A DNA stretch of 64,000 nucleotides from the IMG/VR virus record IMGVR_UViG_3300028549_001461, positions 97,222 to 161,221 of that record, one strand, 5' to 3'. The position numbers and the translations under genes are program-made. The notes beneath the pieces were generated by a model. The model searched no databases and was not told where the DNA came from. It worked only from the letters and a program-made list of their open reading frames with translations. Source of the DNA: a virus. Shown here piece by piece: positions 3,546 through 61,569 of the stretch. How positions within the stretch are numbered: the first letter of the stretch is position 1; each line of letters begins with the position of its first letter.

Positions 3546-4502
3546 TTGAATATGGAAGTATATAGAACAATAAATGGTCATGTAGCCAAGTATGTCCATG
3601 ATGACGGCTCAGAAACAGCTATAAAAACTATACCACCTGGAGAAGTTGGTTGTGGTGGTTATGGTAGTATAGGTAATAAGTACAATATTTTTATAAGTAC
3701 TTCTGTTGGATGCCCTGTATCATGTAAGTTTTGTTATTTGACAGTTAAAAAGTGCCCCTATCATAAATTAACTGCACGAGATGTAGTTTTAAATGTTTTA
3801 GACGCTTTAACTGCTGAGTTAAAAGAAAGACCAGAACTTAGATACATGTACACTAAAATTTCTTGGATGGGTATGGGAGATGGTTTTTTCGACACTTCAT
3901 TAGTCTTTGAAGCTACCGAAGACCTTATGGAGTACATACAAAGTTTTGAAATGTCTTTAGGTATAGATGGTGTAGATATAGCAACAACTTTACCAAAAAT
4001 ACCTGATGGTCCAGTTGATTACATAAAAAAGATATCCGAAAGTGTTTGGGAAACTTATTTAAATCCAAAACGGGAGTATAAGAGAGGTAGCAGCCAACAA
4101 CCTTTTAGGGTTTTTTATTCTTTACAAAGCGCAAATGAATTGACAAGAAAAAGTCTAATACCTAATAGTGTAAATATTTCAGATGCTATTGATTATTTAA
4201 AAAATTTAAATAACAACAACATACCTATTATATTTCATTATATGTTTTTTGAAGGTAAAAATGACTCTGAGGAAGAAGTTACAGCTCTTCTTAAACTTTT
4301 GAATAACTTTAATAATTCTGAACTTCGTTTACTACGTTTTAATAAATGCCCAGGCACTGATTTTTCAGAGTCACCAAAATTTAACGAACTGGTAGATACG
4401 ATATATACCAAGCATAAAAATTTAAAAGTACAAATTTCCCCAGGGTCCGAGATCCAGGCAGCTTGCGGTATGTTTTTATTATCTAAGATTTTAACTAAGT
4501 GA
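3546..4502 (+). CDS. RlmN/Cfr-like radical SAM protein (intact)
   Basis: DGSET, ISTSVGCPVSCKFC, MGMGD, C-terminal EIQAACG. Confidence 0.8.
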   Translation: MNMEVYRTINGHVAKYVHDDGSETAIKTIPPGEVGCGGYGSIGNKYNIFISTSVGCPVSCKFCYLTVKKCPYHKLTARDVVLNVLDALTAELKERPELRYMYTKISWMGMGDGFFDTSLVFEATEDLMEYIQSFEMSLGIDGVDIATTLPKIPDGPVDYIKKISESVWETYLNPKREYKRGSSQQPFRVFYSLQSANELTRKSLIPNSVNISDAIDYLKNLNNNNIPIIFHYMFFEGKNDSEEEVTALLKLLNNFNNSELRLLRFNKCPGTDFSESPKFNELVDTIYTKHKNLKVQISPGSEIQAACGMFLLSKILTK

Positions 4503-28356: not shown

Positions 28357-28962
28357 ATGTTCGAACAATTGGGTATTACACGTAATGATGTATTCGCAGC
28401 GGCTAACACAAGAGAAGTAATTAAAACAGCTATAGTTAATAACAGAGATTCTCTACTAGGTATAGATGATGTTTCTTACTTTTTTGCTATTTTAAAGGCA
28501 TATACTCCTTCACAAATGTACGGAGTGCTAACACCTCAATATATAGCACATAAATTAGGTAATTTGAAAGCTATAACCAGTAAAGATAATCTTGATGGGG
28601 ACTTTAAAATCCGCAACACTAATACAACTGTTGAAATGAAGACCACTTTTCTTAGCATTGACAACACGTATAATCTTGTACAAGTAAGATTGTACGAAGA
28701 CATTGATTTATTTTTCGTATGTGCTGTTGATAAATCTTATAATTTAAGTATGTTTGTTTTGACCAAAGCTCAGATGCAGCAAGAAGTTTCCTTATTGGGG
28801 TCTTCCGCTCATGTAAGTAGTAAATATATACTGGCTAATGTTAATATAGAATATCGTATCACATTACATACAAATAACTCTCATTGGTTACGTTGGATTA
28901 ATACATACAGATTTGAAACTTTTGATTGTGTGAGGAATAAATTTGATAACTTTACAAAATAA
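28357..28962 (+). CDS. Putative restriction endonuclease-like protein
   Basis: DGD...VEMKT, LVQVR; overlaps following MTase. Confidence 0.5.
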   Translation: MFEQLGITRNDVFAAANTREVIKTAIVNNRDSLLGIDDVSYFFAILKAYTPSQMYGVLTPQYIAHKLGNLKAITSKDNLDGDFKIRNTNTTVEMKTTFLSIDNTYNLVQVRLYEDIDLFFVCAVDKSYNLSMFVLTKAQMQQEVSLLGSSAHVSSKYILANVNIEYRITLHTNNSHWLRWINTYRFETFDCVRNKFDNFTK

Positions 28963-29683
28963 TACAATTCAACTTATTAATGGTGAATGTTTGGAGGAAA
29001 TGTTTAGTCTTCCTAAAAATACTATAGACTTAATTTTAGTAGATTTACCCTACGGTACGACAAAAAATAAATGGGATGTTATTATACCTTTTGTTGATAT
29101 GTGGCGGGCTTTTGAGCATGTCTTAAAAGCAGAGGGGCGTGTAGTATTAACCGCTGCACAACCATTCGCTAGTCAACTTATTATGAGTAATCCTTCTTTA
29201 TTTAAGTATGATTTAATATGGGAAAAAACTGTAGCATCAGGGCAATTAAACGTAAAAAAAATGCCTTTAAGGACTCATGAGTATATACTTATCTTTTATA
29301 AAAAATTTAATACTTACAATGAACAGAAAACAGAAGGCATACCATACAAGATTTCAAGAAAAGGAGACTATTCTGAAGGTTGTTATAATGGACAAAAAGC
29401 CAGCATTAAAAATAATAGTGGCTATAGGCACGCAAAAAGTGTTATCAAAATACCTAATCCAAGAATAAAGGGTGGTCACCCCACTCAGAAACCTCTGGCA
29501 CTTATGGTATACCTAGTAAACACTTTCTCAAACAAGGGTGATTTGGTTTTAGATTGTTGTATGGGTAGCGGTACTACTGGGGAAGCATGTATAGCTACTG
29601 GTAGAAGATTTGTAGGTATTGAATTAGATACTAACTATTTCAATGTTGCAAAAGATAGACTATCACAATTATACATTATATAA
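28943..29683 (+). CDS. N4/N6 DNA methyltransferase (beta class)
   Basis: DLPYG, HPTQKP, VLDCCMGSGTT. Confidence 0.9.
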   Translation: MITLQNNTIQLINGECLEEMFSLPKNTIDLILVDLPYGTTKNKWDVIIPFVDMWRAFEHVLKAEGRVVLTAAQPFASQLIMSNPSLFKYDLIWEKTVASGQLNVKKMPLRTHEYILIFYKKFNTYNEQKTEGIPYKISRKGDYSEGCYNGQKASIKNNSGYRHAKSVIKIPNPRIKGGHPTQKPLALMVYLVNTFSNKGDLVLDCCMGSGTTGEACIATGRRFVGIELDTNYFNVAKDRLSQLYII

Positions 29684-29728: not shown

Positions 29729-30127
29729 ATGCTTGATACCTACACGTACAGTAGTCCTTCTACTAATTACGTACCTTATGAAAAAACAGTGATAGAAAAA
29801 AAAGCTCCCACAGATGAGAGTATCCGTTTATATGGTGAATTTTTAGAAAAAGCCCGAAACTCTATATTTGATTCTTTTAGTGTGACCAGCACTACGTTAA
29901 ATTTTTATATTACTATTTTTAGAGATCATCTCACTCTAAAAAATTATGCTGTTTATAAATTAAATTTAAATAACCAAGAATTTATAAATAAAGTTGAATT
30001 ATTTTCGTCATTTGATATTTCAGACCGAAGACAAGTTGTGAAAACAATTTTTAAAGCTATAGCTGAAGATATAGCTCTGCAGTTTGAAGATAAAATAGTT
30101 TATGAAATAAAAGGAAGTGGTTTATGA
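29729..30127 (+). CDS. Hypothetical protein
   Basis: GAGGTGG RBS. Confidence 0.6.
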   Translation: MLDTYTYSSPSTNYVPYEKTVIEKKAPTDESIRLYGEFLEKARNSIFDSFSVTSTTLNFYITIFRDHLTLKNYAVYKLNLNNQEFINKVELFSSFDISDRRQVVKTIFKAIAEDIALQFEDKIVYEIKGSGL

Positions 30128-30846
30128 AAACAATTTCAATGACTGCATATAATAGACCAGATTATTTGGCGGCAACCTTGAATGACTTAACAAAAAACGA
30201 CCCTTATGATTGGCATTTCTTTATAAGTGTTGACCCTTCAGATAAAACAGAACAGATTTTAAGAGTTCTTAACAAAGAATATGGTTTCGCTTCAAAAACC
30301 ATTATCGTAAATCCACAAAGAAAAGATCATCGTAGAAATCAACATGATGCTATAGCTAAGGCTTTTGATACAGGTTCAACATTTAATCTCCATTTTGATG
30401 ATGACCTCTTTATTTCTCCAGATGCTTTAGAATTAGCTAATTATTATGAAAGAACTTTTAAAGATAAACCTTTAACTTTTAATAGTTATGGTTTATTTAA
30501 TTATGATAGTAATCCTAATGAACCTAGTAAGTTAATTTCTAGAGTAGGCACCTTTACAGGGTTAGGCTGGATGTGTTTTAGAGAGGGGTTCGAGAAAGTT
30601 TTTAACCCAAATTGGTTTTATGATGGGTTAGCTTTAAAAATTTTTGGTTCTTATGGTTGGGACTGGTCAGTGGCTGCTTGGTGTAAACAAAATAACTTAT
30701 CTGAAATTTATCCAGCCTTTTCAAGAACAAATCATCGTGGCAGAGAGTGTGGTACTTGTTGTAGTTATGAGTGGCATGATAAGGCTTTTGCTAATTTACA
30801 ATGGAATAAAAATATAATTGTTAAGGAATACTACTATGATAAATAA
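30124..30846 (+). CDS. GT-A fold glycosyltransferase
   Basis: AYNRPDYL, FDDDL, GLGW, GWD, SRTNHRG. Confidence 0.75.
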   Translation: MKTISMTAYNRPDYLAATLNDLTKNDPYDWHFFISVDPSDKTEQILRVLNKEYGFASKTIIVNPQRKDHRRNQHDAIAKAFDTGSTFNLHFDDDLFISPDALELANYYERTFKDKPLTFNSYGLFNYDSNPNEPSKLISRVGTFTGLGWMCFREGFEKVFNPNWFYDGLALKIFGSYGWDWSVAAWCKQNNLSEIYPAFSRTNHRGRECGTCCSYEWHDKAFANLQWNKNIIVKEYYYDK

Positions 30847-31765
30847 AGAACAACTATATACGAGTACGCAGACAAAACTTTTGCATAATTTAGATAATTT
30901 AAAAACTATGCAGCGTGGAGTTTTTAAACCTATAAGTATTCAGTTAGCTCCTACAGATATATGTAATTTAAACTGTATTATGTGTTCTGTTAAAGAACGA
31001 GAAGGTGATGAACTTACTCTTGAGCAATGCATTCAAGTATTGATAGATTTTAAAGGCCTTGGTGCTAAGACTGTGGAATTCACCGGGGGTGGAGATCCCA
31101 CAATGTATAAGTATATTAATGAAGTTATTACTTGTGCCCATGGTTTGGGTTATAGTATAGGCTTAATAACTAATGGTGTAAAACTAAATAACATATCTTT
31201 GGAAAATTTGGCCAAGCTTACTTGGATACGTATTAGTTTAAATTGTTTAGATTATGTAAAAGATATCGATATACAAGTACCAGTGAATGTTACTTTAGGT
31301 TTCTCATATGTTTGGACTGATCTATCTGATGAAGCTAAATTAGAAAAGATAGCTAAATATTATAAGAAATATAAAGCAGCTTATGTAAGAGTTGTTCCTA
31401 ACTGTCTTTCTATTGAGGATATATCTAAAGCTACTGAAGCAGTTAAGCCGTATTTAGAGAAGTATCCAGGCTTCTTTTTTCAACAGAAGAAATATGTAGT
31501 TCCTAAAAAATGTTGGATGGGACTAATTAAACCTTTTGTTAATACTGATGGCTTTGTGTATCATTGTTCAGCAAATCCTTTAATTAATAGAAAATTTAAT
31601 TCTAATTTTAGAATGTGTGCTATACAAGATATTGATAAATATTGGAGGTCTACTCCTGAAGCTTTTAATACTTCTATGTGTCAAGAAGGTAAATGTTTTT
31701 TTGCAGAGCATAATAATTTAATTGAGCAGGTAATCACACCTTGCGAGCATGGAGACTTTATATGA
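30818..31765 (+). CDS. Radical SAM protein with SPASM/twitch-type C-terminus
   Basis: CNLNCIMC, TGGGDP, ITNG, C...DGFVYHC; likely start ATG 30836. Confidence 0.85.
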   Translation: MLRNTTMINKEQLYTSTQTKLLHNLDNLKTMQRGVFKPISIQLAPTDICNLNCIMCSVKEREGDELTLEQCIQVLIDFKGLGAKTVEFTGGGDPTMYKYINEVITCAHGLGYSIGLITNGVKLNNISLENLAKLTWIRISLNCLDYVKDIDIQVPVNVTLGFSYVWTDLSDEAKLEKIAKYYKKYKAAYVRVVPNCLSIEDISKATEAVKPYLEKYPGFFFQQKKYVVPKKCWMGLIKPFVNTDGFVYHCSANPLINRKFNSNFRMCAIQDIDKYWRSTPEAFNTSMCQEGKCFFAEHNNLIEQVITPCEHGDFI

Positions 31766-32373
31766 TGCCATTTAATAAAGATTATTACGTTGATAGTACA
31801 ATAAGTAATTACAAAGATTATAGACAGAAAAAATTTGCCAAATTGGCAGATGATTTATATCCATATTTAGCTCATAGAAAGGTGTTAGATTATGGTTGTG
31901 CTACAGGTGGTTTAATGTTTGAACTATATTTACGAGATGTTTCTTGCGTAGGTACAGATATAAGTTTATGGGCAGTAGAATTTGGTAGAAAGCACTATGG
32001 ATTATCAGAAGAAAAATTACAACATGATAACTCTCAACTGGTTACAAAGAATTTTGATGTAGTTCTATTTCTTGATGTACTTGAACATATTCCTACTGGG
32101 GAACTTGAAACACTTATAGAGAATATAAAAGCAAATCAATTAATAGTGCGTATACCAGTATCTGAAAATGAAGGTGAAGATTTTGTACTTGATGTTAGTA
32201 AGAATGATAAAACACATATTCAAATACATTCTAAGCAATGGTGGCTTGACTTATTCTCAAAATATGGTTATAATAAATTTAAAGCATTAAAAGAAACTAA
32301 TATTTATAATTCAGACGGTGTGTTGGCAGGGGTACTCATAAAGGGTACTTCTTTTATTAATACTACAGTATAA
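31741..32373 (+). CDS. Class I SAM-dependent methyltransferase
   Basis: VLDYGCATG, GTDIS, DVLEHI, DKTHI; likely start ATG 31762. Confidence 0.85.
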   Translation: MRAWRLYMMPFNKDYYVDSTISNYKDYRQKKFAKLADDLYPYLAHRKVLDYGCATGGLMFELYLRDVSCVGTDISLWAVEFGRKHYGLSEEKLQHDNSQLVTKNFDVVLFLDVLEHIPTGELETLIENIKANQLIVRIPVSENEGEDFVLDVSKNDKTHIQIHSKQWWLDLFSKYGYNKFKALKETNIYNSDGVLAGVLIKGTSFINTTV

Positions 32374-51455: not shown

Positions 51456-51761
51456 CTATTTATAACATTTAGCTACTTCTTCTGTCCAACCAGAATCTAA
51501 AACAAAGCCATATCTATCTTTTGAATAACGAATTAATTTTTCTATCACAAAATCTTCATCACCTTCTCCTGTAACTTTGCAAGTATCGCCAACTTTAAGT
51601 CCATCTAATTCTGTGATTGTATAAGTTAGTTTTCCGTGCTCTTTTTCTAGAAGAAGTAAATCATTAGATAACCAATCATTTACTTCTTTATCACTAGAAA
51701 AGACATAGTTTGCTGAAAGGTTTCCTCTTGTTGTTAGTCGTTTAATAAAAATTTTATTCAT
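51456..51761 (-). CDS. Hypothetical protein
   Basis: ORF track. Confidence 0.55.
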   Translation of the reverse strand: MNKIFIKRLTTRGNLSANYVFSSDKEVNDWLSNDLLLLEKEHGKLTYTITELDGLKVGDTCKVTGEGDEDFVIEKLIRYSKDRYGFVLDSGWTEEVAKCYK

Positions 51762-52893
51762 TATTTTCTAGCAACCATTCAGGATTTATAACTTTAAAAC
51801 TAATAGTTTCATCATCAGATCTTCTAACAACAATTCCTTCAGCAGTTACTTTTGGGTTGACCTTACTTTTTCTTTTGGATAGTTCCATAAAATAATTTAC
51901 GTCATGGTCATGCTCAAGAACAAAAGGATCACCAGAAGGCACTATTTTAATACCAACTTGCTTACAAGCAACTTGTTTGTCAAACTTGGATAAAAATGTT
52001 TGATTTTGTATATTAAAAACATTAAAACAATAAAAATCAAGAGTATCTAATTTATATTTATTTTCTTGAATACCTGGACCAATAAGCTCACCTTGTATAG
52101 CTACACTAAAACCTAAAAGATCTGAAAGTTCTTGTACTTTAAGTTCAATGTTATTATCAAGGGCATAACGCCACCAATACCTATTATCAGGAGTAACAAG
52201 TCTTAAGTTTCTTGAACAAACACCAAAACCATTTCCTTTATCTATCTGAAATAAACCAAATTTTTTTCCAACTAATTTTTTATTAAAAAAATAAGACGCT
52301 GAACTACCATCAAGTTTTTCAGTATCGTAAAAAACTTTACCAATGTTTCTACGTAGTATTGTAGGATAACTTTGTAAACGTGTTTCATCAGTTTTTAAAA
52401 TGAACTCTGGAAAATTACCTTTACTCTTTCCAGGCATTATTCTATTGTATACATACCTAAACCAGTGATAATCCATTAAAAAACTTAATACAGGATTATA
52501 TTTTTTGTTACCGGTAGGGTCAGCATTTTCTGGACGAGGATCATATTTAGTAACACCAATTAACTTTGTTACATCTTCCCCTTCCTTATAATATTTTAGT
52601 TCTTTATTACTGAATTCTTTAAGTATAGAAAGTGGAAGAGCCAGACCTTGCGCAATTTGTTTTCGTAGTTTTATAGTTCTAACTCTATATTTTCTATCAG
52701 CCAAAAAATCAAATACAGCTTCTTTAGGAAGTTGAGAATCTATTTCAAAATATACGCATAGATCCCCAATTTGAAATTCGCCTTTTCTTACAACACATTC
52801 CCAACCCAGAATGGAAGCTACTTCAATTTTATCTGCCCCAGGAATTGCTTGTAAATCTAAAATTTTTTGTATAGATGCTAATTGTCTTTCCAT
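51754..52893 (-). CDS. RNA ligase, DRB0094 family
   Basis: RQLASIQKI...IPGADKIE, KTDETRLQ, EKLDGSS, QGELIGPGIQ, EGIV, SFKVI. Confidence 0.9.
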   Translation of the reverse strand: MERQLASIQKILDLQAIPGADKIEVASILGWECVVRKGEFQIGDLCVYFEIDSQLPKEAVFDFLADRKYRVRTIKLRKQIAQGLALPLSILKEFSNKELKYYKEGEDVTKLIGVTKYDPRPENADPTGNKKYNPVLSFLMDYHWFRYVYNRIMPGKSKGNFPEFILKTDETRLQSYPTILRRNIGKVFYDTEKLDGSSASYFFNKKLVGKKFGLFQIDKGNGFGVCSRNLRLVTPDNRYWWRYALDNNIELKVQELSDLLGFSVAIQGELIGPGIQENKYKLDTLDFYCFNVFNIQNQTFLSKFDKQVACKQVGIKIVPSGDPFVLEHDHDVNYFMELSKRKSKVNPKVTAEGIVVRRSDDETISFKVINPEWLLENNE

Positions 52894-53516
52894 TGTTATT
52901 TTCCTGTTACATTACATTTGTTATTTTGTTCTTCTATAAAATCTTTAATTATTTTTTCACCGTCTTCTTTTAAAATAGAACGACTTAGTTTTATAAGGTC
53001 TAATAGTTGTTGTTCTTTTGCGCTAATATCTGAAAGACAACTTTGTTTTATGGAATTTGCTTTAAATAAAGCCCAATTATAACCAGAAACAAATACATGT
53101 ATTAGACTGCCTATAAATATTAATGCTGTAACTATGTAATGCTCCCTAAGTTTTGGTAGTAATGAGGTAAAAAGAATAATATCGTCTGCTGCAACTATAG
53201 TCAAGTATATAGAAAATAAAGCTGATACAAATATAGATCCTATTACAAAGTAGATATCTTTCATTATTTTTTCCTTATGTAGATAATATAAAAATTTTAT
53301 GTCATTTCCAATGAGCATTTAACCACTCAGTAGCATCGTTTTTAAATATTGTATCAGAGCATCCCCAACGCATTGCACTCTTTTTAATAGTGTCTGGTAA
53401 CATATCATAACATGTTTTTACGTTAGGCTTAGATAAGTATTTTTTGTTTGTAATATTATGGTCATGTAAAACCTTTTCTACAATTTTGTGAAAATCCCTA
53501 TATGCAAACCCTTTAC

Positions 53517-54149
53517 TCATACACACTCCAGTTTTAATTTATTTTTTACTATTGGTTTATTCAACCAGTGCTCGTCTGTTTGCACATGACCGGCTCTAAC
53601 ATATTTTGCAACACTATTTGGAAACTCTTCAAGTGCGAATGACCCGGCTAAACGTACAACATATCCTTCCATTTCACCTTTTTCAGTAGGTGTTAATTTT
53701 ATATTTTTTACAAAATCTTCATCCCATATACCATCATATATTACTGGTGCATGAGGTATACCCAAATACTCTAAATCGATTAAAGTATTATCCCATGATT
53801 GACATATGTTATCAAACCATATAGAAAATGCATAAAAAAAGTTTGTAAGATTTATATATGAAATTGAATGTTCTGCAAAAACGTTTTCTCCACATATTTT
53901 TACATGTCTTTCAAGTATCTGGGTCAAATAACCGTAACGATTCTTTATCCAATGCCTTGATGCATGATCTTTTGAATCCATAGATCTTGCGTGTATCTTA
54001 CCATATTTTATGGTAGTACACTCTCCATCAAGTTTTTCTGTAATTATTATACGTTTTCCAACAAAATGGTCTATGGATTTAATAATTTTATCGTCTTTTG
54101 TAACTCCAGGAGACCATGGTAGGTGGTAAGTCTTTGGATATTTAAACAT
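53517..54149 (-). CDS. RNA ligase family nucleotidyltransferase
   Basis: KYPKTYHLPWS, TEKLDGE, GEN, EGYVVR, AKYVR. Confidence 0.85.
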   Translation of the reverse strand: MFKYPKTYHLPWSPGVTKDDKIIKSIDHFVGKRIIITEKLDGECTTIKYGKIHARSMDSKDHASRHWIKNRYGYLTQILERHVKICGENVFAEHSISYINLTNFFYAFSIWFDNICQSWDNTLIDLEYLGIPHAPVIYDGIWDEDFVKNIKLTPTEKGEMEGYVVRLAGSFALEEFPNSVAKYVRAGHVQTDEHWLNKPIVKNKLKLECV

Positions 54150-54509
54150 GATCTCTCTCTCTCCTATTATAATTCAGAGCCCTCTTTCCAAGCTGCAATA
54201 GCTTTGTCACTAATACTTTGTAAATTATACAACAATTTTCCATGAGGAAAAAGTACGTCATATCTCGTTCCACCTTTTGTGAGACTAAAAAACATTGGCG
54301 TAGTACCAGAATTTCTTACTTGAAAAGACATACTGCTACTATTAAAAAAACAAGGCACTGTAATAAAATATATATTGTCTTCACTATCGTAAGAACACTT
54401 AACCTCTTGTAGCAGTTTATTTATATTTGTAAAATACTTGTTTTCAATTTTTTCTATTTGTTCTTTTGTAGCTTGTACAACATTTAAAAACATTTTAATA
54501 CTCCTTGAT

Positions 54510-54833
54510 TTATTTTTTGTGTGCTTTTAGTAATTCTTCTATAGAATAATAAACTGGAATTTTTAAACGCTTTGCCATTGTCTCTTCTATATCCGCGCCT
54601 TTACTTTTACCTTCTAATCTCAATACGCAGTCGCACAATTTTAACCAACTTATTAAAGCACCAAGCCAAAAATTGTAAGGTCTATGTTGTTCTTGCTCAA
54701 GGTAGTGAGAAAGCAGTGGTACAAATGGATTAAAACCATTATCAATTAAAATGTTACCTACAGTAATTTGTGCTTTAACATTCGCCTCTCTGTCACCTTC
54801 GCTATATTTTGAAGATATATAAACTCTTTTCAT
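54510..54833 (-). CDS. DUF4406 / nucleoside 2-deoxyribosyltransferase-like protein
   Basis: VYISSKY, PFVP, CDCVLRL, SKGADIE. Confidence 0.7.
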   Translation of the reverse strand: MKRVYISSKYSEGDREANVKAQITVGNILIDNGFNPFVPLLSHYLEQEQHRPYNFWLGALISWLKLCDCVLRLEGKSKGADIEETMAKRLKIPVYYSIEELLKAHKK

Positions 54834-55094
54834 AGATACTCCTAATTAATTATTACATAAGTATATTTGTTCTTACAAGAAAGGCAAATAGGCTAAAAAT
54901 AGCTAAGAGTATTCCAAGGGCAAATGATATAAATGCCCCACCTGCTATTATAATTACATACTCCCCATGGTTTTTTCTAACTTTTGTATTAATTACGGAC
55001 CCATTCGCTACATATTTTTTCTTATACCATTTTTCATAATTATAACCTACAATGAATAAAATTACACTAAATAATATTAAGGAAATTGTTATCA

Positions 55095-55301
55095 TTATTT
55101 ATCACTTGTTTGTTCAATAATGGCTAACTGACCGCAAGCAGCACCAGCTTTAATTTCCGCATCAGTAGCGATTGCCACTGCATAGTCGTAGCCAGCTTCT
55201 TGAAGCTGCAGTTTAATAAGTTCTTCTTCAACCTTTTTTATATATTCTTCTTTTGTTACCAATCTACCATCACTGGTTTGTTTTCTAATATTTTCAGACA
55301 T
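55095..55301 (-). CDS. Small protein carrying the RlmN/Cfr C-terminal AACGQL motif
   Basis: LQEAGYDYAVAIATDAEIKAGAACGQLAII; AAGGAGA RBS. Confidence 0.7.
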   Translation of the reverse strand: MSENIRKQTSDGRLVTKEEYIKKVEEELIKLQLQEAGYDYAVAIATDAEIKAGAACGQLAIIEQTSDK

Positions 55302-55354
55302 ATGCTTCTCCTTAGAATAGAATTTTACTACCTTAATTTCTTAGTTCAGTTTTG

Positions 55355-55561
55355 TTATCTAAACATCCCTGCTCTTATAGTAAATGTATAATGAAGAATA
55401 TTATTAAGCATGATAGGAAAAAAATCGCCTACATCAACCCATTCGTTACTTTTTAACATTTCTTCTGCCATTTTAGTTGCAAACTCATTTGCTTTACTAG
55501 CTTCAATAGTAAATGTCTCTATTTGTACAATCTCATTAGCTTCTTTTTTTAATTTAGACAT
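55355..55561 (-). CDS. Hypothetical protein
   Basis: ORF between the two radical SAM parts. Confidence 0.55.
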   Translation of the reverse strand: MSKLKKEANEIVQIETFTIEASKANEFATKMAEEMLKSNEWVDVGDFFPIMLNNILHYTFTIRAGMFR

Positions 55562-55563
55562 AG

Positions 55564-56364
55564 TTATACCAAATTATGTTGTTTAATTATACCTTTTCCC
55601 ATACCATTTTTTTCAGATACTTCATTAGTATTTATAGGTGAGATTTTAATAAAGAAATATTTTGGATCAAAATACTTCTTTAGTGTGTTAATATCAAAGT
55701 CTTCTGGTCGGGCTAAAGTTAGATTGATAGTAGTTTTGAGCTTACTGTTTGTTCTGACTTTACCCATTTCTTCAAGAGAGATCTTATGCTTATAAGGAAT
55801 AAGCCAGTCACGATAATCTTCTTTGAATGAATGCACAGAAAATTGTAAAGTAATATTATCTTTAATCCAAGAGTAGTCTGCCCCTTTTACACCAATGGTA
55901 GAGATGTAGTGATGCACTTTTGTATTAGGAAACTTTTTATCAATAATAGAGATAGCTTCTCTAACAGCCTCTAGATTTAAAAACGGTTCGCCCATACGAG
56001 TATAATTTATTTTAAATTCTTTAGCATCACATGTGTTGTAAGAAAAGTTGTCGTTGTTAAGGATAACAAACACTACTTGCTCAACAATCTCTTCAGCTGT
56101 AAGATTTCTACATTTTTTCATTGTTGCAGTAGCACAAAATTTACAACCAACTGGACAACCACTCATTGTAGAAACACCAATCATCCAACGTTCAGCTCTA
56201 CTACCAAGATTACCATCTTCTAAAAAGTTTTGATGCTTACCAATAGCATCTTTAGTATAAAATGGTAAGAAAGTATCAGTAACTTCTAATGGATAACCAT
56301 CTTCTGTTTCCAATAAGTAAACCACACCGTTAGCGAATTTTTTATTTTTTATCTCTTTTAACAT
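55564..56364 (-). CDS. RlmN-like radical SAM protein lacking the C-terminal AACG segment
   Basis: STMSGCPVGCKFC, RNLTAEEIVEQV, MGEP, ISTIG, LQFSVH; ends soon after ISPIN. Confidence 0.85.
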   Translation of the reverse strand: MLKEIKNKKFANGVVYLLETEDGYPLEVTDTFLPFYTKDAIGKHQNFLEDGNLGSRAERWMIGVSTMSGCPVGCKFCATATMKKCRNLTAEEIVEQVVFVILNNDNFSYNTCDAKEFKINYTRMGEPFLNLEAVREAISIIDKKFPNTKVHHYISTIGVKGADYSWIKDNITLQFSVHSFKEDYRDWLIPYKHKISLEEMGKVRTNSKLKTTINLTLARPEDFDINTLKKYFDPKYFFIKISPINTNEVSEKNGMGKGIIKQHNLV

Positions 56365-56375
56365 TTTACAACTCT

Positions 56376-56762
56376 TCAGATTGATTTTTTATGTACCATT
56401 ATTTTAGATTTAGTTTCTTTGCTTAAATCACCGTCTATCCACAACTCTCCTTGAACTGTGTCTATTAAATTTTCCAGTTTTTCTAATTCATTGAGAAGAA
56501 ATAATATTATATCACCTTCGCTAAGATCTTCACAAGTAACTCTTAATTCATCTCTACCGTCTTTAGTCAACCAATAATCATTAGTTCTCATATGGTCTCC
56601 TCTATGCTTCAAAATGGGTACTGTTTTTTTTAATTGTTCATTTTCTTCATGTAGTTTTTTTATTACCTTCCAAGCCATTTCTGGGTACTCTTTAATAACA
56701 TCCCATGGTTTTTCCAGTTTAAACATATCTGGTAAATTTGCAGCACATATGTTGTCAAACAT
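56376..56762 (-). CDS. Hypothetical protein
   Basis: AAGGAGA RBS. Confidence 0.55.
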   Translation of the reverse strand: MFDNICAANLPDMFKLEKPWDVIKEYPEMAWKVIKKLHEENEQLKKTVPILKHRGDHMRTNDYWLTKDGRDELRVTCEDLSEGDIILFLLNELEKLENLIDTVQGELWIDGDLSKETKSKIMVHKKSI

Positions 56763-56822
56763 AATTCTCCTTAAATAAAGACAAATTTAATATCATTATA
56801 ACAATATTCTATGAGTATACCA

Positions 56823-57092: not shown

Positions 57093-57545
57093 CTATTTAT
57101 AATAAACCAAAGCATTAAACTTACCAAGTGTTTTATCTACAATTTTTTCGACTACGCTCCAATTACCACCTGCAAGACCACAACCAATTTTTGGTAATCT
57201 TATTTCCCAAGTACTATACTTTTCAGCAACAGTAGCCATGCACTTTTCTATAGCTTCATACTCAGCATATAGTCTGTTGTCTCTTCCGTAATAATATTGT
57301 GTGTAACAATTAAGAATATGTAAGTTATCAGAAATAACTGCAGTACTAAAAGTACCTAATTTTTTTCTATCTCCTCTAATTGTTTGTGTTATATCAGCAG
57401 TGTACACTTGAGGAAATTTATTTTTTAAATATTTTGCTATCCCAGAGCCCATGGTGTGGAAACAGTTACATCCGTGAAGAATTACTGTTTTCTGATTATT
57501 GATATCTAAATTACTCAATATATCAGCTTTAATTGTGTTTATCAT
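57093..57545 (-). CDS. Macrodomain (ADP-ribose processing) protein
   Basis: HGCNCFHTMGSGIA, NCYTQ, PKIGCGLAGGNW. Confidence 0.88.
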   Translation of the reverse strand: MINTIKADILSNLDINNQKTVILHGCNCFHTMGSGIAKYLKNKFPQVYTADITQTIRGDRKKLGTFSTAVISDNLHILNCYTQYYYGRDNRLYAEYEAIEKCMATVAEKYSTWEIRLPKIGCGLAGGNWSVVEKIVDKTLGKFNALVYYK

Positions 57546-57553
57546 AATAATTA

Positions 57554-58297
57554 TTAACTCCTTATAGAATAGTTCCAGCCTAGTTTCGTGTGTATAGCTT
57601 CAAAAAAAGATGTAAATTTAACTAATTTAATTATGATATCACTTTTAACTATAGTCATATTGTACAATGTGTCTTCAAAAACAGGTACACCATCTATATT
57701 TATCTCTGCTTTCTTAGATGTTCTTAGTGTTAATTTAGATGTATCTGAAATTATCAATGGCCGGGCTGCTAAAGAGAAAGGACATATAGGCGCAATACTT
57801 ATTACGTTTGTATTTGGTTGAACTATAGAGCCACCTGCAGACAAATTATATGCTGTTGATCCAGACGGTGTTGAAATAATAACTCCATCACCTTTGTAAT
57901 TTAGATTATTATCATCTACTTTTAATTGTATATCAAACAATTGACCTCTTTTTACAGCCTGTACAACTACTTCGTTAAAGCCTACAAATTCTTTATTTTC
58001 AATAATAATTTTTAAAACACTTCTGTTTTCTATTTTTGATTCATCAGGATTTTTAAGGAACTCCATAACTTGCTTTTTAGTTATATCATTAGATAAAAAA
58101 CCAACATGTCCTGTGTTAATACCAAGTATAGGTATATGTGTCATGTCATTTTCTATTAGTAGTTGACTAGCTCTTAGTATAGATCCATCTCCACCATCAA
58201 CTACAAAAATACCAGCTTGTTTAATATTATTTACTCTGTCTGGGCCATTGATATCTGTGCAAGGAATTGCTTGTCCATTAGTGTAGTAGTCTAACAT
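57554..58297 (-). CDS. NAD kinase
   Basis: GGDGS, GINTGHVGFL, NE, GDG, STPSGSTAYNLSAGG, IDG. Confidence 0.9.
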   Translation of the reverse strand: MLDYYTNGQAIPCTDINGPDRVNNIKQAGIFVVDGGDGSILRASQLLIENDMTHIPILGINTGHVGFLSNDITKKQVMEFLKNPDESKIENRSVLKIIIENKEFVGFNEVVVQAVKRGQLFDIQLKVDDNNLNYKGDGVIISTPSGSTAYNLSAGGSIVQPNTNVISIAPICPFSLAARPLIISDTSKLTLRTSKKAEINIDGVPVFEDTLYNMTIVKSDIIIKLVKFTSFFEAIHTKLGWNYSIRS

Positions 58298-58694
58298 ATA
58301 CCTATCCTTTATTTTTTATTAGTTTACCAACAATTCCAACACCACCTACTGTTGCATGTTTTGCTATCTTACTTTCTTTGTAAGTAGATATATTTCTTTT
58401 CTTTTTTGGATTTACTTTTTGTTCCAGAACTACTATAGGAAAATATTCAACTATGTTATTCTTAGTCTTCATATTATACTTTCTTTCTTTTTAGTGGAGG
58501 CGAAGGGGAAGGTGAAGAAGGTTTTCTTACTTTTTCTTGATGTGGACATAGTTCACTACTATTGGGATATTCACTACAACATCTTGCACCTAATCCGAAT
58601 AAACTTTTGTTTATATTCAAGTTATTACACCAAGCGCCTTTGTTGTTGTAAATACAATTTACTTTAATCATCATATCTGGCCCTTTTATTTTAT

Positions 58695-58800
58695 GTAATA
58701 CTACCAGTATCACTGCCTACAGATTTGACAGATCTTGTAATTCGTAGACTCACTGGTAGTATTACCTATGCGGATACTCAAAGTAGCATAGTCTTGTCAG
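58695..58800 (-). ncRNA. Candidate structured RNA (14-bp stem, K-turn-like loop, possible pseudoknot)
   Basis: GTAATACTACCAGT/ACTGGTAGTATTAC perfect inverted repeat plus CTATGC/GCATAG hairpin. Confidence 0.45.
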
Positions 58801-58847
58801 TTACTATACTACTTTTATACCCTCTGAATTAATTTTATTCAGTTATT

Positions 58848-60197
58848 TTAAAAACTAGTAACACGGTCCAATTCTGCTAGAGCAGAAGCTCTTAACTGTT
58901 CAAAACAATACTGCCTATAAAACATACCATTTTTCCATACAAGTGGTAGATTTAAATTATCAAATCTTCCGCGCTTACTCTTTTTCCAAGGCGCATCAGA
59001 AGGTTCTTTAAATACATCGGCCCAAGCATATTGATCATCTTCACCTGCTTTAAAGATTGCAGACATTTTCATGGCATATTTATAGGTGTCTCTATTTACT
59101 TGTTGTAAAGATCCTCCTCCCATACCAAAAGCAACATTATCTGCAGACCAACCAGCATTTGTAATTGTTTCTAAAACTTTTCTAATATCATCAGGGCCGT
59201 TTAAACCATCACCTTGAATAACACGTATACAGCTTGGTAAGATTTTATAGCCCTTACTATTTATAATAGTACCAAAACATTCACCAAGTTGTTCAAGGGT
59301 ACGAAGAACAATCTCAGAAGGTTCACCAGAATCTGGGCGAACTACAAGAGTTCCACCAGATTGTACAATCCTATCTTTAAATTCACCACCCCAGTATTTA
59401 AGTATTGCGTTACTCAGGTCATAACTATCAGACACAACAGCTACAATTGATCCTGGTTTCAAAAACTGATTTAACATGTTTTCATAAGCATCTCTTTCGA
59501 ACTCACGGCCCCATGCAGTTATTGTACTGTGCTCTGCAGCATTGATGCTAAAGCCAAGCATAGCATCAGTGTTGTAGTAATCCTGAGCTTCAAAGATTCC
59601 AGCAACAGTATCAGTACCCATAGAGGTAAGTAACTCAGCAGAAGCACCAATACCAGCAGATTCTTCGGAACTTACACCACGATAACCAAAAGAATGTAGT
59701 TTAAATGGTGCTTGTTCAGGAGTACCAGTTTTCTTCAAGTATTCAAGAATAACTTTCTTGCACTCAAATTGTTTGGTAGCAACAGTAGTAGGATACCATA
59801 ATTGTAACAGACGTGTTTCTACCCATCCAGGAAGCCATCCAAAACGGTCGTCAGTGGATTCAATTGTTACTTGTACCTCTTTAGTCTTAACTAATTTACC
59901 TTCTTCTACAGCATGAATTTCAAGCGGATAATAACCAAGTTTTACAAGATCCAGCCAACCCTGTTTATTAAATTTAACACCATGTTCTGCCCAAAATTTT
60001 GCAGCTTTTTTGACTTCTTTTTTGGTTACCATTTTTGTAAGTAACCGTTTAATGATAGCTTGAAGACCAAAGAATAGTACTTCTTCTGCACCACCTCTGG
60101 ATTCAATATAATAATAACTTCCACGATTTTCAGGGAATTGTAGATAATGACTTACCTTGTAACTATCAGTTGTAAAAACTAAGTTTCTTTTTTTCAT
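58848..60197 (-). CDS. nadV: Nicotinamide phosphoribosyltransferase
   Basis: TDSYKVSH, YIESRG, WYPTTVAT, AAEHS, VSDSYD, RPDSG, IQGDG, FGMGG; start placed at 60197 after AGGGAG. Confidence 0.93.
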   Translation of the reverse strand: MKKRNLVFTTDSYKVSHYLQFPENRGSYYYIESRGGAEEVLFFGLQAIIKRLLTKMVTKKEVKKAAKFWAEHGVKFNKQGWLDLVKLGYYPLEIHAVEEGKLVKTKEVQVTIESTDDRFGWLPGWVETRLLQLWYPTTVATKQFECKKVILEYLKKTGTPEQAPFKLHSFGYRGVSSEESAGIGASAELLTSMGTDTVAGIFEAQDYYNTDAMLGFSINAAEHSTITAWGREFERDAYENMLNQFLKPGSIVAVVSDSYDLSNAILKYWGGEFKDRIVQSGGTLVVRPDSGEPSEIVLRTLEQLGECFGTIINSKGYKILPSCIRVIQGDGLNGPDDIRKVLETITNAGWSADNVAFGMGGGSLQQVNRDTYKYAMKMSAIFKAGEDDQYAWADVFKEPSDAPWKKSKRGRFDNLNLPLVWKNGMFYRQYCFEQLRASALAELDRVTSF

Positions 60198-60200
60198 GTT

Positions 60201-60232
60201 TGTTCTCCCTTGCATCAACGCATCTAGGATTT
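60201..60232 (-). promoter_or_regulatory. SD-sequestering hairpin motif upstream of nadV
   Basis: AATCCTAGATGCGTTGATGCAAGGGAGAACA; near copy at 61570-61603. Confidence 0.55.
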
Positions 60233-60675
60233 TTATTTGTACTACTCTGGTTTTACTGTCATTTCAAGGGTATTGTCTACCCATTTCGTTTTTGAGTCAT
60301 TGCAATTCATATAGGAAACATCAATAGCTACTTCATATCCTAGCCAATTACCAAGGTCTTGTTCTCCTTGGTCACTGTACCAAGCTACGAATGCTTCAGC
60401 TTGTTCCTTTGTTTCAAAACCTTTTATTAATACTTTTGGCATATTTACCACCAACCTTTAGATAGTCTTTCATTTTCTTGTAAAATTTCTTTAGCTATTG
60501 CTAACTCTTTCTCTACTCGGTATTTGCAATTTTTTGCATGACCTTTGAGACGACCATTTATTTCAGGGCTACTTCTTTTACAACACAAACAGCAATAATA
60601 AGGATTATCTCCGCCTATAGGCTCTGTAGGATAATTATTATCATATTCTATTTCTTTCTGTCTTTTCATATACTG

Positions 60676-61569
60676 TTAACTCTTGCTTATAAGTAATAAA
60701 TGATTCATCATCTCTAAATGTTCAGGAACGATATATTGCATGATGTCACCAGTAAAATCAAACCATCTGAGTTCATGTATGTCATCATCTGGTTCAGGTG
60801 TTCCTGATTTTATAGTGGCAGTATGAAGTATCGTAGTGATTTTATCTCTTTCGCCCTTATATCTCCAATCAGTAGACGGAAAACTATCGATGTATTTAAT
60901 ATTTTTTAGTATTAAATGAGTTTCTTCATAAGCTTCCCTTGCTACAGCCTCAGATACTTTTTCCGAATTCTGTATAAAACCACCAATGAATCTATACTGT
61001 GTCTCTCTTGATTTTCTTCCTAAAAGGATTTTTGAAAATAGATCATCAAATATAGCAACATCAATTGTAAATTTAGGAGAAGGCCATTGATTTCCCATAG
61101 CCCAAATAGCACCAGCTCTAAAATCTTTTGTTACATTAGAACGTATGGCAACTTGTTTTCTTATTTCAGTTCCTGAGTAATATGTTTCTTGAACTAATTC
61201 TTTAGTCTGAAATTTGCCATTGTAATAAGGTATAAAAGAATCCCTGCTTCCATATAAACATACAGTTTGTTCTGGACCGATGAAACTTTTAATTTTGTCA
61301 TCGAGATCTTTAGACCATAATTTATCATCATGTACATCTTTGATATAGACTATGGTGGCTTTAGGAAAATGTTGTTGGATCATGGCTCGTCTAGATTCAA
61401 AATCCAAAGGATTATTGAAAGTACACTTGCAGTGAGAAAGACCTACAAAAATTATAAGTCTATTGTGAGATTGCTCTACTGTTGAGAGCAGTTTGAGATG
61501 GCCTTCATGGAGATCGTCTACTTGAAAACGACCAATTACTACACCTACGTCTGCGCTTTTTTCTTTCAT
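60676..61569 (-). CDS. Bifunctional NMN adenylyltransferase / Nudix hydrolase (NadM-Nudix, NatV-like)
   Basis: GRFQ..LHEGH, NPL, GSRDSF, SGTEIR; Nudix GGF...AREAYEET. Confidence 0.88.
   Translation of the reverse strand: MKEKSADVGVVIGRFQVDDLHEGHLKLLSTVEQSHNRLIIFVGLSHCKCTFNNPLDFESRRAMIQQHFPKATIVYIKDVHDDKLWSKDLDDKIKSFIGPEQTVCLYGSRDSFIPYYNGKFQTKELVQETYYSGTEIRKQVAIRSNVTKDFRAGAIWAMGNQWPSPKFTIDVAIFDDLFSKILLGRKSRETQYRFIGGFIQNSEKVSEAVAREAYEETHLILKNIKYIDSFPSTDWRYKGERDKITTILHTATIKSGTPEPDDDIHELRWFDFTGDIMQYIVPEHLEMMNHLLLISKS

Follow-up and report, generated by a model that had tools for sequence, protein, structure and literature searches.

The locus described here raises the question of whether a radical-SAM methylase can be built from two chains, with its methyl-carrier cysteine on a small protein of its own. 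RlmN is the E. coli C2-methyltransferase for A2503 of 23S rRNA and A37 of tRNA; its Cys355, in the loop AACGQL, is methylated and crosslinked to RNA, and Cys118 is required for release. In a 64,000-nt stretch of viral DNA (IMGVR_UViG_3300028549_001461, positions 97,222 to 161,221), called the window below, the ORF list holds three head-to-tail ORFs on the minus strand that encode a 266-aa core, a middle protein of 68 aa and a peptide of 68 aa (Table 1). We propose, with a probability of roughly 0.78, that the core and peptide genes specify a single enzyme made of two chains, which is related to the class A methylases RlmN and Cfr and specific to phages. The proposal rests on the fold, a docking model and conservation; the chemistry is inferred by analogy.

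The middle ORF starts 2 nt past the stop codon of the core gene, and the peptide gene, which is present as a single copy in the 161-kb record, follows 53 nt further on. A scan for promoters and terminators near the genes gave nothing exceeding the shuffled background. No phage record matched 12 kb of the window in a megablast search, and tblastn with a 1353-aa neighbour protein gave only distant archaeal-virus matches; the taxonomy and host of the phage are therefore left open.

Table 1. Features of the locus and of related loci. Positions without a prefix refer to the window; an L prefix marks another locus.
Feature	Position	Strand	Evidence
Core subunit, 266 aa, RlmN/Cfr-type radical-SAM barrel	55564..56364	(-)	ORF, PF04055, TIGR00048, AlphaFold2 model, fold matches
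Codons of C70-P-V-G-C74-K-F-C77, [4Fe-4S] cluster motif	56134..56157	(-)	Sequence
Codon of Gly63, position of RlmN resolving Cys118	56176..56178	(-)	Alignment to RlmN chains
Middle ORF, 68 aa, cysteine-free, function unassigned	55355..55561	(-)	ORF; homologues in relatives
Small subunit (peptide), 68 aa	55095..55301	(-)	Homologues, hhalign, docking model
Codon of Cys56, equivalent of RlmN methyl-carrier Cys355	55134..55136	(-)	Invariant in alignment A1; complex model
AAGGAG Shine-Dalgarno site of peptide gene, 6 nt 5' of ATG	55308..55313	(-)	Sequence
Two RNA ligases (379 aa with PHA02142 OB domain; 210 aa) and DUF7768 protein, module flank	51754-54833	(-)	
Macro-domain protein, NAD kinase, NAMPT, NMNAT-Nudix protein, module flank	57093-61569	(-)	
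Fused RlmN/Cfr-like paralogue, 318 aa (P0271)	3546-4502	(+)	
240-aa ORF, no family determined	30124-30846	(+)	
The 240-aa ORF, 315-aa MoaA/PqqE-like radical-SAM gene, overlapping 210-aa methyltransferase-like ORF	30124-32373	(+)	Family scan for the radical-SAM gene; other labels read from sequence, without family scan
Adjoining DNA-methylase-like ORF	28943-29683		Read from sequence, without family scan
Nested pair: 90-101-aa protein ending DPC[SG]HG...SC, then ~290-aa MoaA/viperin-like radical-SAM protein	L095:2216-3354, L012:8804-9969, L014:9019-10379		
Different nested pair: 243-262-aa MoaA/viperin-like radical-SAM protein overlapping ~148-aa SAM-methyltransferase-like protein	L026:8780-9968, L018:8734-9899, L004:5471-6627		
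GIY-YIG/NUMOD1 homing endonuclease gene, free-standing mobile, between core and peptide	L013:8792-9607		

The core is related to RlmN at a distance. It matches PF04055 with 38.8 bits and TIGR00048 with 78.4 bits against a cut-off of 290, the latter match being limited to positions 102-244 of the 355 in the model. With the Cfr models NF000424 and TIGR04432 it scores 61 bits against a cut-off of 530 and 58 against 550 (58-61 against 468-550 elsewhere in our analysis), and none of the curated RlmN/Cfr cut-offs (TIGR00048, NF000424, TIGR04432) is reached. For the AlphaFold2 model of the core (pLDDT 84), the best Foldseek matches are RlmN structures (E 1e-11). Residues 1-266 superpose on residues 79-333 of E. 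coli RlmN with a Z of 22.4 and an rmsd of 2.7 A over 232 aligned residues (VIA, 3RF9). In the fold ranking, RlmN structures (Z 21-22) are followed by Cfr (Z 16.2) and by TYW1 as the next family (Z 12.8). The CxxxCxxC cluster motif (C70-x3-C74-x2-C77) is present, and its cysteines are the sole invariant ones of the family.

Since the core superposes on RlmN 79-333 only, it stops ahead of the last strand and the Cys355 loop, its end being equivalent to RlmN residue 333. Residue 1 of the model aligns with RlmN residue 79, and the N-terminal domain (RlmN 1-78) is absent. Judged from the model, the core is thus RlmN minus its N-terminal domain, last strand and cysteine loop. The preliminary description of this locus had placed the end of the enzyme ahead of the last helix or strand, which the fold alignment bears out, and it had omitted the loss of the N-terminal domain. 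It had also held that the missing part is supplied by the peptide two genes downstream with its own ribosome-binding site, a claim that agrees with the AAGGAG site and with the alignment of the peptide to RlmN described next.

The C-terminal end of the peptide reads ...AGAACGQLAIIEQTSDK, and the terminal segment is also given as ...AGYDYAVAIATDAEIKAGAACGQLAII... Residues 29-62 provide a helix, then Y38-T46 as the final strand of the barrel, then the AACGQL cysteine loop, and residues 1-25 are a variable N-terminal extension. Free-standing homologues form 206 clusters of 39-111 aa with 16 invariant positions, and Cys56 is invariant in alignment A1. HMMER searches of PDB sequences, with the peptide as a single sequence and as profile A1, gave no RlmN match; the lack of a significant match for the peptide alone counts against a two-chain enzyme. 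When a profile of 31 peptide homologues was compared with the canonical RlmN-type alignment by hhalign, it matched columns 309-347 of 351, including AACGQL, at the RlmN C-terminus, with a probability of 88% and an E of 2.9e-6. Neither the peptide nor the middle ORF has a match in Pfam, NCBIfam or PHROGs.

Modelled together, core and peptide give a complex with a score of 0.77, against 0.01 for the best control. Solved complexes come up to this mark in 58 of 80 cases and mismatched pairs in 2 of 110; contact agreement between runs was at least 51% and partner pLDDT at least 57. The docked peptide occupies the site of RlmN's own C-terminal segment. Its strand 36-46 is modelled against the last core strand, 237-243 (FFIKISP), and its loop 48-62 with Cys56 contacts the core both in its cluster motif, at residues 74 and 76-79, and in its SAM motif, at residues 122 and 124. 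The C-terminal part of the peptide lies close to the N-terminus of the core, which is consistent with a natural fusion, P0124, in which the peptide stands at the N-terminus of the core. Because the whole fold, of which core and peptide are the two halves, is known from single-chain structures, the docking result may stem from likeness to RlmN; the model demonstrates resemblance and not binding.

Conservation of the arrangement provides evidence of another kind. Fusions are rare, and the split is the normal state of the family, not a one-off break. Among 80 viral loci, taken from 395 viral core relatives and fetched via the core alone, the peptide gene is present on the same strand in 79; in the one locus without it, 4 kb are deleted compared with a twin of 99% identity. 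A search of 185,579 species genomes found it in 39 of 41 core-found loci (mostly MAG contigs), the two without it being a contig end and a broken core. Core and peptide are the only genes common to all 31 dereplicated loci, and the closest full-length core relatives (250-294 aa) share the same end point. The family is phage-specific and confined to phages, and the pair is found in isolated phages that are unrelated to one another (Kehishuvirus, Moorella phage MTATph1, Pectobacterium Wc4 and Arno, Yersinia P778, Vibrio D479), with Bacteroides among their hosts. The spacing of the two genes ranges from overlapping to 1.8 kb, whole genes intervene in many loci, and the peptide gene is upstream of the core in L004 and L135.

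These observations refute a reading of the split as a chance disruption, pseudogene or sequencing error, or as an intron-split gene rejoined by splicing, and we give it almost no credence. The split is found in ~120 loci and 206 clusters of free-standing peptides, the peptide has its own start codon and ribosome-binding site, and its gene can precede the core or stand 1-2 kb from it, separated by whole genes. The likely source run X1, a microbial mat metagenome, yields a contig that covers the stretch with no difference. Among sequencing runs, X1 alone spans it, and no RNA run is listed as carrying it; contigs from wastewater runs are fragmentary relatives, with one low-depth joint from 55145 to 55838 that allows no interpretation. 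Beyond the split itself, the one point in favour of disruption or splicing is the homing endonuclease gene that lies between the two genes in L013. Scanning 54800-56800 with Rfam returned neither an intron nor any other RNA family at E <= 1, and a gene split by a self-splicing intron was ruled out by the reversed order in L004 and L135, the intervening genes and the absence of an intron family.

The natural fusions of the two parts, which speak for a two-chain enzyme, are P0124, already mentioned, and a fused sister clade (P0175, P0207; ~30% identity) with the peptide at the C-terminus. A search for longer proteins containing the peptide gave only two, both apparent read-through fusions to unrelated neighbours, a result that is weak evidence, and in L017 the peptide is fused (330 aa) to the end of a different radical-SAM protein, the MoaA/viperin-like one that is nested elsewhere. 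The rarity of fusions is a difficulty for a plain heterodimer: many core-peptide gene pairs are only 10-20 nt apart and fusions would be expected to be common, yet there are two longer proteins and one N-terminal fusion.

Three further observations concern the outlines of related proteins. In P0211 (78 aa), from the search of representatives, the first ~62 core residues are joined straight to the peptide end (...RWMITAKAACGQLAII...); this is probably a deletion variant or a misassembly. A group of RlmN-like proteins of 258-284 aa with the motif 'KIGVS..SGC' (P0192, P0193, P0199, P0204, P0209, P0233, P0239, P0246) stops just past the last barrel strand, without a cysteine loop. On a Methanoregula MAG contig (L134:143-1768), a 541-aa core homologue with 13 cysteines is followed by a 46-aa peptide gene; its extra 280 residues may be an intein or a fusion.

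Taken together, the split in nearly all relatives and the docking model support the heterodimeric enzyme inferred in the preliminary description. It had asked whether the peptide docks into the barrel, as it does in the model, and had named fusion in all homologues as the mark of a one-off disruption; homologues are almost never fused.

The genes that surround the pair bear on a different proposal, that the peptide is a RiPP-like precursor, the core its maturase and the modified peptide the product. The middle ORF, which had been called unrelated, does lack a family match and is no orphan: two homologues are known (94% and 65% identity), and the 65%-identical copy directly follows the core in L095, the nearest relative (core 81% identical). 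It is absent from most other lineages. In L095 the core is followed by the middle ORF; next come a small protein of 90 aa that ends DPC...SC and a MoaA/viperin-like radical-SAM protein of 290 aa, and the peptide is last. L012, L008 and L014 are arranged like L095, and the window is without the small protein and radical-SAM pair. A RiPP-like cassette is one possible reading of this pair; another is that it performs a further step in the pathway of the module. L032 is among the loci that carry a different MoaA/viperin-like radical-SAM gene together with a SAM-methyltransferase-like gene between core and peptide, and altogether a second radical-SAM gene is nested in the module in 11 of the 31 lineages.

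A small ORF beside a radical-SAM gene, and in relatives a second small protein with a Cys-rich C-terminus next to a second radical-SAM gene, are what a RiPP cluster would offer. The peptide itself does not look like a precursor: the 33 residues of its conserved part hardly vary and are homologous to a structural segment inside RlmN, the alignment reveals no leader/core layout, family scans of the core enzyme found no SPASM, RRE or peptide-recognition domain, and the peptide is found fused to the core. We hold it to be very improbable that the peptide is a RiPP-like precursor.

Elsewhere in the window, a group of ORFs on the plus strand includes a radical-SAM gene of its own (Table 1). The MoaA-like gene there (30818-31765) was compared with the nested genes and ruled out as their orthologue.

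At the position of Cys118, seven residues ahead of the first cluster cysteine, the core has 'MIGVSTMSGC' (Gly63) where RlmN has 'LCVSSQVGC' in the alignment to RlmN chains. The lack of a Cys118 equivalent had been recognised at the outset for this one enzyme, and it now extends to all surveyed cores: Gly is found in the 18 closest of 19 aligned cores, in 31 of 31 dereplicated loci and in 41 of 41 genome loci. Four cores have the cluster cysteines only, three in all. The conserved part of the peptide holds one cysteine, with an extra one eight residues later in five lineages. No second cysteine is conserved anywhere in the core-peptide system, and the disulfide release of RlmN cannot run as known within one core-peptide pair. 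In RlmN, the C118A mutation abolishes m2A formation and leaves the enzyme trapped in a covalent complex with RNA (PMC5130265). In the absence of that cysteine there may thus be no catalytic methylation at all, which is a point against a two-chain methylase.

The same facts favour a peptide that is a consumable co-substrate, loaded by the core and used once, which stays methylene-bridged to the target base, in a nucleic acid or a nucleotide, or leaves the core as an adduct to be resolved elsewhere, while a fresh peptide rebinds. The absence of a resolving cysteine, with Gly at the Gly63 position in all cores examined and only three cysteines in four of them, the one cysteine in the conserved part of the peptide and the covalent complex trapped by C118A would all fit. 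So would the survival of the split, with few fusions, through deep divergence and changes of gene order. In the window, the ribosome-binding site of the peptide gene is far stronger than that of the core gene (Shine-Dalgarno duplex energies of -9.1 and -2.9 kcal/mol), which also speaks for consumption; across the 31 lineages, the peptide gene has no stronger site than the core gene (stronger in 20 of 31; Wilcoxon p = 0.36). The comparison is limited in that many of these phages do not use such sites and start codons are uncertain.

Against consumption, the model makes the peptide an integral strand of the barrel and so suggests that it is stably bound, and fused forms exist (P0124, P0175, P0207). 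A search of representatives also found 25 fused RlmN-like proteins without a cysteine at the Cys118 position, and the fused paralogue in the same window, with the loop ...EIQAACGMF, has Phe there; the missing cysteine is thus not specific to the split form. The link between the missing Cys118 and the split is weakened by these Cys-less fused families and by P0124. We regard a consumable peptide as unlikely. The more specific claim, that after each reaction a peptide of 40-70 residues is left covalently bound by Cys-S-CH2 to an adenine, which may belong to a nucleic acid or nucleotide of the host or of the phage, is unlikely too. A consumable peptide on RNA and a RiPP-style product, both raised in the preliminary description, are neither supported nor excluded by the present analysis.

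The paralogue has a further cysteine, in 'VGCGGYG', ~20 residues ahead of its cluster motif. A similar 318-aa gene lies ~250 nt upstream of the split core in L014.

For the two-chain enzyme, a mechanism can be outlined by analogy with RlmN. The 266-aa core would bind the [4Fe-4S] cluster and SAM, and the peptide would add the last barrel strand beside core strand F237-P243 and place the Cys56 loop over the cluster/SAM site. Cys56 would take a methyl group from one SAM; the 5'-deoxyadenosyl radical from a second SAM would then abstract a hydrogen from this methyl group, and the resulting thiomethylene radical would add to an sp2 carbon of the target, probably adenine. Our best guess is that a stable heterodimer releases its product in some other way than RlmN, e.g. 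by means of an outside thiol or a second copy of the peptide. No glutaredoxin was found in the 161 kb of the record, which is ~61% complete. There are no data on substrate, expression or activity, and the proposal of a two-chain enzyme is weaker for it.

A two-chain enzyme might also use Cys56 differently, as a hydrogen-atom donor or thiyl radical in a reaction other than methylation. Single-cysteine hydrogen donors are known in other radical-SAM enzymes, e.g. spore photoproduct lyase. Such a role would accommodate both the absence of the second cysteine of the RlmN cycle and family scores far under the RlmN and Cfr cut-offs. The AACGQL loop, identical letter for letter to that of RlmN, argues for the same first steps, and we consider a hydrogen donor improbable.

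For the target of the proposed two-chain methylase there are only weak hints. RNA is an assumption: the core is without the N-terminal domain of RlmN, and it is not a basic protein. Cores of the family have a median pI of 7.6 and a net charge of +1, close to neutral, compared with +2 to +19 for canonical RlmN-type representatives. Two weak hints come from gene neighbours. The nested genes belong to nucleotide-acting radical-SAM families, and in this clade the module lies between NAD-salvage genes and two RNA ligases, in an island of RNA-repair and NAD-salvage genes (Table 1). The missing N-terminal domain, the near-neutral core and the nested nucleotide-type radical-SAM genes point, weakly, away from a simple RlmN role on rRNA or tRNA. 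The phages that carry the module differ widely in host, and crAss-like gut phages are among them, so that its target is probably universal. The culturable carriers make genetics possible. The 40-residue gene tends to be overlooked in gene calling and annotation, or to go without a name. A description of a split or phage RlmN-like enzyme was not found in the literature within our coverage, from which most papers in subscription journals are missing.

To our knowledge, RlmN and Cfr are the only class A radical-SAM methylases that have been studied, and their mechanism depends on a pair of cysteines within the same chain; Cfr consists of a single chain and has the two of them. The phage enzyme shares with RlmN (3RF9, 3RFA, 4PL1, 5HR6, 5HR7, 6FZ6) the barrel, the CxxxCxxC and GEP (SAM) motifs and, following the last strand, the AACGQL loop. 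It differs from RlmN in having two chains, no N-terminal domain, Gly in place of Cys118 and a near-neutral instead of a basic charge, and in being confined to phages. Cfr (9P0P), the C8-methyltransferase for A2503 of 23S rRNA, has the same class A fold and a C-terminal methyl-carrier cysteine, and is further from the phage core than RlmN. The fused Cys118-less relatives (P0271, P0175, P0207 and a 'SNCGQ' group) are short and lack the N-terminal domain, as the phage family does; unlike it, they are single chains with other loops (AACGMF, AACGQA, SNCGQ), and none reaches a curated cut-off. The closest parallel in the missing resolving cysteine is the RlmN C118A mutant, an engineered dead end, whereas the phage family is in this state by nature. 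There must be a productive outcome, since selection has fixed the cysteine-less state in many lineages of phages. With the methyl-carrier loop kept letter for letter on a separate protein and no second cysteine, that outcome would be either an alternative means of release or a covalent peptide adduct. The adduct, if true, would be a natural, programmed cross-linking of peptide to nucleobase in which the split lets the core reload, and both outcomes can be tested with two small recombinant proteins.
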